Origin: a virus
Lineage: Duplodnaviria; Caudoviricetes
DNA length: 37,104 nt
Strand: one strand, 5' to 3'
Virus record (IMG/VR): IMGVR_UViG_3300021982_000006
Coordinates: 1 to 37,104 of that record
The notes under the pieces were generated by a model. That model was given only the letters and a program-made list of their open reading frames with translations, made no database searches and was not told the origin of the DNA. Of this stretch, positions 26,078 to 28,741 are shown piece by piece (within the stretch, counting starts at the first letter, position 1; the number at the start of each line of letters is the position of its first letter). Position numbers and translations under genes: made by a program.

Positions 26078-28741
26078 ATGGGATATAAAGCAAATACATT
26101 TAATAAATATGATATTCTATCAAGTGATGCAATGAATAAAATAGAAACTCAATTGCAGATTCTTTCAGAAGACGATAAAACAGGACCCCAAGGACCACAA
26201 GGTTTACAAGGACCTAAGGGAGATACAGGAGCGACAGGACCACAAGGTCTAAAAGGTGACACAGGTTCTCAAGGTATCCAAGGACCGAAAGGTGACAAGG
26301 GCGACACAGGAGCAACTGGACCACAAGGATTAAAGGGTGATGCAGGAGAGACAGGACCCCAAGGATTAAAAGGTGACACAGGTTCTCAAGGTATCCAAGG
26401 ACCAAAGGGCGATAAAGGAGACACGGGTGCAGTAGGACCACAAGGACCAAAGGGAGATACAGGAGCGACAGGACCTCAGGGATTAAAAGGGGACACGGGA
26501 GCAACTGGCGCAGTAGGACCACAAGGAAAAGTAGGAGCTACAGGACCCCAAGGTGCAACTGGTGCTATAGGTCCCCAAGGTATCCAAGGACCTAAAGGAG
26601 ACAAAGGTGATACGGGTGCAGACGGTAAGAGTGTTACTATATTAGGTTCTTTTACAAGTACTAGTAGTCTTCCCTCTGAAGCTTCTGTAGGTGACGGTTA
26701 TCTAGTTAATGGGGACTTATATGTATATAGTTCAGATTCTAGGTGGACTGACGTAGGTAAGATACAAGGACCTAAGGGTGATACAGGAGCAACAGGTGCT
26801 ACAGGACCCAAGGGTGAAACTGGAGCTCAAGGTATACAAGGTATAAAAGGCGACATAGGTCCCCAAGGTATCCAAGGACAAAAAGGCGATGTTGGTAATA
26901 CTGGACCACAAGGGCTAAAAGGCGACACAGGAGCAACTGGACCACAAGGAATACAAGGTTTACAAGGACCTAAGGGAGATACAGGACCTAAGGGTGAAGC
27001 TGGAGCGAAAGGAGCAACTGGACCACAAGGTTTACAAGGACCTAAGGGAGATACAGGAGCGACAGGTATTGCTGGAGAACAAGGACCTAAGGGGGACACG
27101 GGTGCAGTAGGACCACAAGGTTTACAAGGACCCAAGGGAGACCAAGGAATACAGGGACCTAAAGGTCCGACTGGAGCAACTGGTCCCCAAGGAGTTCAAG
27201 GAATACAGGGACCTAAGGGTGCAACTGGTGCGACTGGTCCTGCAGGTAAAGACGGTAAGGATGCTACAACAAGCATAAACTCTATATTTGACAAATATTC
27301 CAATAAATACCATTTTCAGATGCCTGACCTAGGGTTTATGAATGATATACAATCTGCTTTTTACCGTAACGGTATATGGCATTTGTATTTCCTATATAAT
27401 GGTGATTCTCGTTTAGATTCTAATGGAGACCAAAAAGGGGGAAATGGTACAGAATGGTACCATGTTACGACTACAGATTGGGTAAAGTGGAATTACGAGG
27501 GTGTAGCAATCCATAAGTTTAAGACTGATTGGGGAGATATAGCCACAGGTACTATATTTGAAGATATAGGCAATTATTTTGGTAAAGGAGATGGAGCAAT
27601 AATAGCTCTTGCTACTGGTTATGGTGGAGATAAAGGTCAAAATACGATGGCTTATTACTCTACTGATAATGGGTATACATTTTCTCCTTTACAATCAACT
27701 CCTATTTTAGGCAATGGTCAACCTTTAGGTACCTATCCTGACTTTAGAGACCCCTACCTTTTCCATTTAGATAATAAGTGGATAATGTATATAGCTGAGG
27801 GCGCTAAATTTGGTGTTTACGTGTCAGATAATCCTACAAGTGGATATACATATAAAGGTGCTTATGTAGCTCCTAACGGTCTGTTAGAGTGCCCTAACTT
27901 ATTTGTAATGAACGTAGATGGTAGTAGAAGTAATCAGAAGTGGGTATTATTCTACGGTGGTAATGGTGGAGACGATGTTTCTACGGGTACCTATGCTTCT
28001 ATTGGTCATTTAGACAGTAATTATGTATTTATACCAGAACAAGAAAATATACGAGTAGATAGAGGTCCTGATTTCTATGGTTCTAAAGTCTTTGCTGATA
28101 CCTCTGTTTCTGACGTAAATGACCATGTTCTTTCTGTAGGATGGGTAGGAAACTGGGGATACTCTACTAAAGTACCTAATGATGGTAGAATGGGCAATGG
28201 TTCTTTAACAAGAATGATTAAGCTTCATAAAACTGGTGATAACTATTGGCTTACTAGTGAAATATTAGGTCCAGTACAGGATTATCTAGATAACCCTATC
28301 GTGGGTAATGACCTTACTTCTAACATAGCTTTGCCAATGTTTAAGGGAGACTCGTTCTACTTTAAATTACGTCTTAAGAATATGAGTAATTACAAAGGAA
28401 CTGCTGGAGTAGAGTTTTATGGTAATGGTTATGATTCAGAGTTTACTTTTGATTTCAATGCTATGAAATGTACAGTTCATCGTTACTGCACTAGTTTTAA
28501 TAACAATGCAACCTTTGGTCAAGACAGAAGTTTCCCAATCTATATGAATAACATGTCTGACGTTTGGTTGGAGTTTTATGTAGACCGAACAACTATTGAG
28601 CATTTAACAGCGGATAAGCAAGCCTATACGATGGCTAAATATCCGCTAGGTCCAAGCCATGAACGTATAGCTATTGTATCCTCATCAGATATAAAGTTCG
28701 ACTATGAATATTATCAGATAATCAACAAAGAGTCCTACTAA
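26078..28741 (+). CDS. Collagen-stalked GH32 fructan hydrolase (endo-levanase LevB-like); putative virion depolymerase fibre
   Basis: Short N-terminal anchor; 50 + 55 Gly-X-Y triplets; GH32 catalytic motifs FMND (27344), FRDP (27746-27754), LECP (27887); LevB-like YLYN...GNGTEW-H and EGVAI-K; C-terminal beta-sandwich. Start ATG 26078 after GGAG. Confidence 0.9.
26183..26632 (+). repeat. Collagen-like repeat block 1 (50 Gly-X-Y)
   Basis: 9-bp periodic [21 protein letters not shown] units. Confidence 0.95.
26768..27262 (+). repeat. Collagen-like repeat block 2 (55 Gly-X-Y)
   Basis: Same periodicity; separated from block 1 by a 45-aa non-collagen hinge. Confidence 0.95.

Follow-up and report, generated by a model that had tools for sequence, protein, structure and literature searches.

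A GH32 fructanase on a predicted collagen stalk: a candidate virion-attached levan depolymerase of a probable Leuconostoc myophage

To our knowledge, tail spikes of beta-helical fold from Gram-negative phages make up nearly all of the depolymerases that are carried on phage particles. Levanases have been described from phages before. LevP of phiNIT1 is proposed to remove levan and is described as a soluble endo-levanase, not a tail spike (PMC6966330, PMC9863714). Levanase is listed among the depolymerase classes on the basis of SP10 (PMC5380687), and phage levanase genes receive a brief mention in a catalogue of honey-bee phages (PMC13369170). A collagen-type stalk is found in EPclA of E. coli O157 prophages, which was shown to be trimeric and dumbbell-shaped (PMC3368898). 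Here, we describe a gene in a 37,104-nucleotide stretch of viral DNA (IMG/VR record IMGVR_UViG_3300021982_000006, positions 1 to 37,104, hereafter the window), which joins a long collagen stalk to an enzyme of glycoside hydrolase family 32 (GH32). Taking the comparative evidence together, we give a probability of roughly 0.55 to the reading that its product is a trimeric depolymerase of levan, attached to the virion of a Leuconostoc myophage. The open-licence literature examined, with subscription papers and supplements outside it, contains no description of this fusion or of its clade.

The fusion gene (26078–28741, on the + strand like all window features below) is an uninterrupted open reading frame (ORF) of 887 amino acids (aa), with a GGAG ribosome-binding-type sequence 7–10 nt 5' of its ATG. 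The protein starts with a 35-aa N-terminus, the predicted docking segment (26078–26182). Two collagen blocks follow, residues 36–185 (26183–26632) with 50 and residues 231–395 (26768–27262) with 55 uninterrupted Gly-X-Y triplets, separated by a 45-aa knuckle (26633–26767). The enzyme consists of a five-bladed GH32 propeller (residues 412–722, 27311–28243) and, at the C-terminus, a beta-sandwich (approximately residues 741–881, 28298–28720). Pfam detects Collagen (E 9e-49) and, over residues 412–722, Glyco_hydro_32N (PF00251, E 4e-44, 152 bits against a cut-off of 22.1). The Pfam model of the GH32 C-terminal domain, PF08244, has no match at E<=0.001, and the sandwich is identified from the strand list of the structural model and from fold matches. 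A sequence-only reading of the window, made without database searches, had described the 35-aa N-terminus, the 105 triplets in two blocks, a GH32 domain with three catalytic motifs and the terminal sandwich; the translation and Pfam, and for the sandwich the predicted model, bear this out. If triple-helical, the blocks would form rods of ~43 and ~47 nm. With a collagen rise of 2.9 Å per residue (PMC3368898), the 315 collagen residues at 0.286–0.29 nm each give the stalk of ~90 nm that had been proposed. All 105 triplets are unbroken, and a relative (P0128) deviates at only two positions.

We take the fusion to be real DNA, because single contigs cross the junction between collagen and enzyme. 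This is the case, from position 27037, in all three DNA runs compared (X14, X2 and X6). In X14 and X2, single contigs also run from 24500 into the collagen at 26221, and none covers the whole repeat. X2 and X6 are possible sources of the window DNA; X14 is not so marked and is independent. In addition, a metagenome contig of 137.7 kb (L070) is 99% identical to the window across 19.8 kb. An assembly chimera is ruled out by the bridging contigs together with L070.

According to the model of residues 400–887 (pLDDT 90.4, pTM 0.91), the enzyme is formed by a propeller together with a beta-sandwich at the C-terminus, and Foldseek matches it to many solved GH32 enzymes at a TM of about 0.8, with exo-inulinase and invertases at the top (TM 0.82). 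Neither the model nor the fold search shows a right-handed parallel beta-helix as the catalytic domain. The catalytic motifs are intact: NDIQ with the nucleophile D423 (codon 27344–27346), RDP with D558 (27749–27751), and ECP with the acid/base E604 (27887–27889). The roles of these triad residues are well established for GH32. The triad (D, RDP, EC) is invariant in 24 out of 24 aligned relatives. Over 479 codons compared with the Leuconostoc prophage copy introduced below, 200 differences are synonymous and 77 non-synonymous, which argues that selection keeps the enzyme intact.

The closest solved sequence is the endo-levanase LevB1 (E 4e-44), followed by an invertase (3e-24); with a profile of the clade, LevB1 reaches 4e-78 and the next entry 4e-51. 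The motifs ND-x-Q, YLYN-x-D and GNGTEW-x-H are common to the window enzyme, a LevB orthologue (P0071), LevP and a protein named levanbiohydrolase (P0072). Three tryptophans are reported to narrow the pocket of exo-inulinase (PMC6560043). In the window enzyme W38 is replaced by F420 and W65 by Gly, and W335 is kept (W693); the two losses point to a wider active site. Judged from these comparisons, levan is very probably the substrate, and cleavage inside the chain (endo) is the somewhat likelier mode. With an identity to LevB of only ~30%, we regard levan as likely and the endo mode as putative.

Four observations weigh against this assignment. The window enzyme is 29.5% identical to the LevB orthologue and 28.9% to LevP; none of the enzymes in its clade is characterised, and a long branch separates this clade from LevB; Foldseek places LevB1 only 24th (TM 0.71), behind the exo-inulinase and the invertases; and P0072 lies in the same motif group, so that an exo-type release of levanbiose is possible. 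The resemblance to Bacillus LevB noticed in the sequence-only reading holds for the motifs and for the best solved match, and fails as clade membership, as the window enzyme falls outside the LevB clade, in a separate 41-row clade with a support of 100 (quick tree). A virion-attached enzyme of another specificity or mode, i.e. an exo-acting, levanbiose-releasing or inulin-type (beta-2,1) fructanase directed at inulosucrase products or plant fructans, would fit the low identity, the uncharacterised clade and the order of the fold matches. GH68 enzymes include inulosucrases, and the GH68 matches in the Leuconostoc genomes discussed below are not typed as to product. Against this explanation, the motifs group with LevB and LevP and not with the WMNDPNG type, the sequence searches place LevB1 first by 20–27 orders of magnitude, and two pocket-narrowing tryptophans are lost. 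We consider it distinctly improbable.

With 83% identity in the enzyme domain, the closest comparison is a Leuconostoc prophage protein, to which the window protein is sister in the tree. The prophage version has 576 aa and occurs in sequenced Leuconostoc mesenteroides or litchii. At the DNA level, the cassette common to Leuconostoc prophages (27287–28725) extends over 1439 nt, gap-free, with 76% identity, and starts directly after the collagen. Both proteins fall within a 24-row clade with a support of 97. The tree has 97 rows, was built in quick mode and is rooted at the midpoint; it omits three Spiroplasma rows, the bulk of the weakest hits and the fragment P0035, and includes no SacC or invertase reference. 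Judging from the common cassette, the enzyme module was exchanged with temperate Leuconostoc phages, in either direction. The nearest cellular relatives of the phage clade are several exported paralogues of Spiroplasma spp. (P0024–P0034). GH32-type matches are as rare in phages as the sequence-only reading had it, with 22 among 50,697 phage records, 16 of them from Bacillus phages and none from a phage of a lactic acid bacterium. A plasmid search gave one distant match.

As first read, the fusion protein has no signal-peptide-like stretch. The same applies to the 23 closest full proteins (P0001–P0023), none of which has an N-terminal hydrophobic stretch above 1.7 (some may be truncated gene calls), whereas 19 out of 21 cellular relatives checked reach at least 1.8, which is signal-peptide-like. 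Nineteen of the 23 carry at least five Gly-X-Y triplets before the enzyme. Because the clade has collagen and no hydrophobic stretch, and its cellular relatives are exported, the secretion signal appears to have been swapped for fibre parts. The N-termini of P0006, P0004 and P0011 match the tail fibre family PHROG 4440 (E 8e-30, 6e-24 and 4e-10), and most clade members start with a phage fibre-type N-terminus, of which the clade has three or more unrelated kinds. A BppU label for the Limosilactobacillus N-termini had no Pfam match and was dropped, leaving the PHROG tail-fibre label alone. The Limosilactobacillus versions (P0006, P0007 and the P0135 cluster; 939–1500 aa) are found on contigs whose longest lengths gather at 123–127 kb, a hint of one large element. 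Two other relatives, P0005 and P0021, have an extra C-terminal beta-helix after the GH32 part and are possible two-enzyme fibres.

The protein could also be a levanase trimer in soluble form, produced late and set free when the cell lyses, with a collagen and an N-terminus that either remain from a former fibre gene or only aid trimerisation. LevP of phiNIT1 is a precedent (PMC6966330, PMC9863714), release by lysis needs no signal peptide, the N-terminal motif is degenerate, and the gene lies far from the tail module. However, the two Bacillus phage enzymes read (2 of the 16 records) stand alone, with 477 and 483 aa, so a soluble enzyme needs no extension of 400 aa. The fibre-type N-termini of unrelated kinds and the unbroken triplets also speak against a soluble enzyme, which we hold to be unlikely.

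The genomic surroundings of the relatives are in agreement with attachment to the virion. In all four distinct phage-like contexts read, the GH32 relative lies among virion or fibre-type genes. In the Leuconostoc prophages L001 and L002 (= L007) it follows the tape measure gene and stands between the two halves of the distal tail protein (Dit), Dit-N and Dit-C, and the N-terminus of the prophage GH32 protein matches head-fibre and tail-fibre PHROG families. In L006 the gene next to the GH32 relative, on its downstream side, begins with the same N-terminal motif, and in the Bacillus prophage L008 a more distant relative follows a head-closure gene. Both bacterial genomes with such prophages (2/2) encode a GH68 fructansucrase.

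At the split-Dit loci (L001:9103–11895 and L002:8647–11895), the N-terminal belt and the C-terminal part are separate genes, and each downstream gene has its own ribosome-binding site; related phages have an unbroken Dit (L156, 297 aa; L158, 485 aa). A second split Dit with a different insert is present in phage phiLM33_01 (L174:3864–8237, L176:3689–4114). There, Dit-N carries the annotation 'capsid and scaffold protein', Dit-C is encoded by gene 4 (61% to that of L001), and after Dit-N comes an unannotated, adhesin-like ORF of more than 1000 codons, which has the same N-terminal motif and runs off the end of the record. The podovirus-like Bacillus prophage region of L008 is present twice on one contig, 43 kb apart (L008 and L009), and its virion genes include the GH32 relative as well as a fibre-like glycerophosphodiesterase gene.

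Evolved Dits carry carbohydrate-binding modules at the point where the prophage gene is found, phiLM33_01 has its long adhesin-like ORF there, and three heads would provide avidity. The protein might then be mainly an adhesin, whose GH32 heads grip fructan near the producing cells and cleave it only to release or walk the particle. We see a slim chance for this, as the catalytic residues are invariant across the clade. Levan is also unlikely to be an obligatory receptor, because only 6 out of 21 Leuconostoc species genomes encode GH68.

The possible means of attachment is the N-terminus. A motif of ~30 aa, often in tandem, starts 2824 protein clusters with unrelated C-termini, as counted with a 5-row profile that has the window's own N-terminus among its rows. 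Members of this family match the N-termini of PHROG head fibre, tail fibre and minor tail proteins; Pfam has no family for the motif in the 10 members scanned (from the listed clusters P0199–P0348). The window N-terminus had been compared with a phage fibre anchor, 'MAY..W..GD.IT...LN.IE'. A hidden Markov model made from the first 30 aa of 150 listed other proteins gives it 12.7 bits, the best score among the 38 window ORF N-termini and one reached by none of 5000 shuffles. The match therefore stands, in a weak form that has lost the conserved Trp, and on this score the 35 aa appear to be a weak but non-random, divergent member of the phage fibre N-terminal motif family. The knuckle is of the phage tail fibre kind, with matches to 10 PHROG families, the best named being tail fibre proteins (E 4e-9 and 3e-7). 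In the ESM Atlas, residues 1–45 find collagen clusters, one of which has 14% head-fibre members at 0.90; this serves as a lead only. The same N-terminal motif is found, joined to a pectate-lyase-like beta-helix, in gp36 of Leuconostoc phage P793 (L175:802–2403), a 'hypothetical protein' between holin and endolysin, which is by its sequence a candidate depolymerase.

The window itself has the gene order of Herelleviridae (Twort-like), helicase-primase-resolvase-polymerase-SSB-recombinase-sigma-Ig, and its best hits are herelleviruses. Since the polymerase is only 36% identical to that of the nearest isolate (Brochothrix A9), we leave the genus unplaced. The fusion gene follows the sigma gene and the Ig gene, i.e. 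it occupies the post-sigma slot, as the sequence-only reading had it; in Enterococcus herelleviruses this slot contains genes annotated as structural. In scans of viral contigs with sigma and exonuclease genes, no phage relative with another gene in the slot was found. Elsewhere in the window, a gene with a nucleotide-modification-associated domain (DUF1599) is located at 35725–36183.

A lactic-acid-bacterial host had been suggested, and the comparison narrows this to Leuconostoc as the probable host, judged from two modules that are common to Leuconostoc phages. One is the enzyme cassette, and the other lies in the baseplate-region gene at 1–1059, which matches only 5 out of 50,697 phage records, three from Leuconostoc and two from Oenococcus phages. 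The identity to the Leuconostoc phages is 64% and 53% over ~145 aa, and two of the three records represent one phage. This module occurs in tail proteins of siphophages of both Leuconostoc and Oenococcus, and thus represents another exchange with temperate phages, besides that of the enzyme. GH68 fructansucrases are encoded in 6 of the 21 Leuconostoc species genomes; L. mesenteroides produces levan from sucrose (PMC12215647), and Leuconostoc myoviruses have been reported from sauerkraut (PMC4009412). The phage is common: among 24 listed sequencing runs, 16 contain at least half of the window's words. They come from 12 studies of food fermentation, food production, compost and waste, and four of the listed run rows are possible sources of the window DNA.

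Upstream of the fusion gene lies an Ig-domain structural gene (25301–25996), a homologue of the post-sigma genes of Enterococcus herelleviruses. It is preceded by a late-promoter-like box, AGTTATATTA (25244–25253), a 10-mer that is also present, at 1080, in front of the baseplate gene. Three copies of the 9-mer GTTATATTA are found in the window, always on the + strand: before the baseplate gene at 1109, within sigma and before the Ig gene. It resembles the late box of Kayvirus, whose late promoter consensus is TGTTATATTA (PMC7698491). Between the Ig gene and the fusion gene there is a hairpin with a weak U-tract (26006–26034), a possible leaky terminator (z -1.8, 11 out of 200 shuffles equally stable) that is not called by the terminator scan. 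A terminator-like hairpin is found at the end of the fusion gene (28727–28762), followed by a near-consensus sigma-70 promoter (28757–28785) for the next gene. Late expression of the fusion gene would likely occur by read-through from the box before the Ig gene. Parts of the fusion gene are covered by contigs of two RNA runs, both from one study, though such libraries can contain DNA and genes cannot be ranked by their depth. In two RNA runs of a different study, there is a variant Ig gene that runs into a Pro-Glu repeat at window position 25729, possibly from a strain with a different post-sigma slot; the fusion gene has no cover in these runs, which proves nothing.

Directly 5' of the fusion gene, only a 9/12 sigma-70-like match was found as a promoter, in a scan that gave 6 sites against 11 expected. 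This bears on another role, that of an auxiliary metabolic enzyme which would act within the infected cell on sucrose or short fructans. Such a role would agree with the lack of a signal peptide and with PHROG, which lists the phage levanase under auxiliary metabolic genes. It is scarcely credible, however: no early promoter above chance precedes the gene, the enzyme scores 47 bits against a cut-off of 356 with the sucrose-6-phosphate hydrolase model, its cellular relatives are exported, and a 90-nm stalk would be pointless in the cytoplasm.

Our preferred reading, a virion-attached levan depolymerase, implies the following course of events. After late expression, three chains would zip into two collagen rods hinged at the knuckle, as the perfect triplets and the EPclA precedent suggest. 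The N-terminal motif may then bind a virion protein, and docking on head or neck is favoured over the baseplate, because the gene lies outside the tail module. At the far end, three GH32 heads would hydrolyse beta-2,6 fructan by a retaining mechanism with D423 and E604, probably inside the chain. In this way, the levan slime around the probable Leuconostoc host would be cut and the phage would reach the cell wall. The counterpart in temperate Leuconostoc phages would be the enzyme on a short anchor in the tail module.

The case for the virion location is one of guilt by association with relatives, none of which has virion evidence in the literature examined, and a number of points count against it. 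The contexts cover four distinct loci, and so a minority of the clade members, and one clade member (P0023) resembles a cellular surface protein. The 12.7 bits of the window N-terminus compare with 37–49 bits for the prophage copies, the conserved Trp of the family is missing, the full-length protein against the 5-sequence motif profile gives a non-significant E of 0.41, and the 35 aa have no direct PHROG match. The sequence-only reading had placed the fusion gene behind a putative late promoter; this needs correction, as no late-promoter-like box is present in the 81 nt 5' of the gene, and the box at 25244 lies before the Ig gene with the hairpin between. At two mismatches the late-box 10-mer is no commoner than chance (127 against 143), which makes the late-promoter assignment only suggestive. 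Regarding the host, CRISPR spacers and other matches in the 21 Leuconostoc species genomes are short, imperfect or at chance level, besides the two common modules and the collagen stretch. Finally, the known phage levanase is reported to be non-structural (PMC6966330).

More tentatively, and with less than even confidence, we propose that this phage GH32 lineage, captured apart from LevP, is a plug-in virion depolymerase in phages of myo-, sipho- and podo-type that infect levan-making Firmicutes. Exchangeable docking modules would have taken the place of the export signal: here a collagen whisker of 90 nm on head or neck that bears three enzyme heads, in Leuconostoc prophages a gene by which Dit is split in two. 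If true, a GH32 enzyme on a collagen fibre would be both a new fold and a new mounting for virion depolymerases, and slime made from sucrose would protect lactic acid bacteria against phages to such a degree that a counter-measure is selected. The uncharacterised levanase clade may also be of use in oligosaccharide production or slime control.

Compared with known systems, the closest are the LevP phages, i.e. phiNIT1 and its homologues SP-10, SPG24, BSP18/21, Goe9 and SPO1-like phages (PHROG 21583). Like LevP, the window enzyme is a GH32 fructanase encoded by a herellevirus, with LevB-like motifs and no signal peptide. Unlike LevP (and Goe9), it has an N-terminal extension of 400 aa with stalk and anchor, LevP being a stand-alone protein of 477–483 aa in the two read, and the identity is 29%. 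In the tree, LevP falls into the other half, together with Paenibacillus enzymes, and this suggests that the two were captured separately. LevB1 of Bacillus licheniformis (PDB 9H8I) is the best solved sequence match and shares ND-x-Q, YLYN-x-D, GNGTEW-x-H, RDP and ECP as well as the loss of the W65-type Trp. It differs in being cellular and exported and in belonging to a separate clade (~30% identity to its orthologue P0071), and the window enzyme has F instead of W before the nucleophile and an insertion of 7–8 residues in loop 1.

The arrangement of the fibre resembles that of EPclA and EPclB of E. coli O157 prophages, which have an N-terminal phage module, an unhydroxylated Gly-X-Y stalk, an internal knuckle (EPclB) and a globular tip. 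The window stalk is ~3x longer, however, its tip is an enzyme where theirs is non-enzymatic, and it has no recognised C-terminal trimerisation domain. With evolved Dits of Gram-positive siphophages, the prophage enzyme gene shares the place where binding modules are inserted (PMC9692632); in contrast to these, Dit is split by an insert that has a start and a stop codon of its own and is thus a gene in itself, and the window phage is of myovirus type and carries the enzyme at another locus. Like tail-spike depolymerases, the protein is proposed to break down extracellular polysaccharide from the particle, but those are trimeric beta-helices, and here, with a propeller and a sandwich, it is presumably the stalk that brings about trimerisation, rather than the catalytic domain. 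So, as read here, the fusion would work like a virion depolymerase and belongs to GH32, being neither a LevP nor a beta-helix tail spike.

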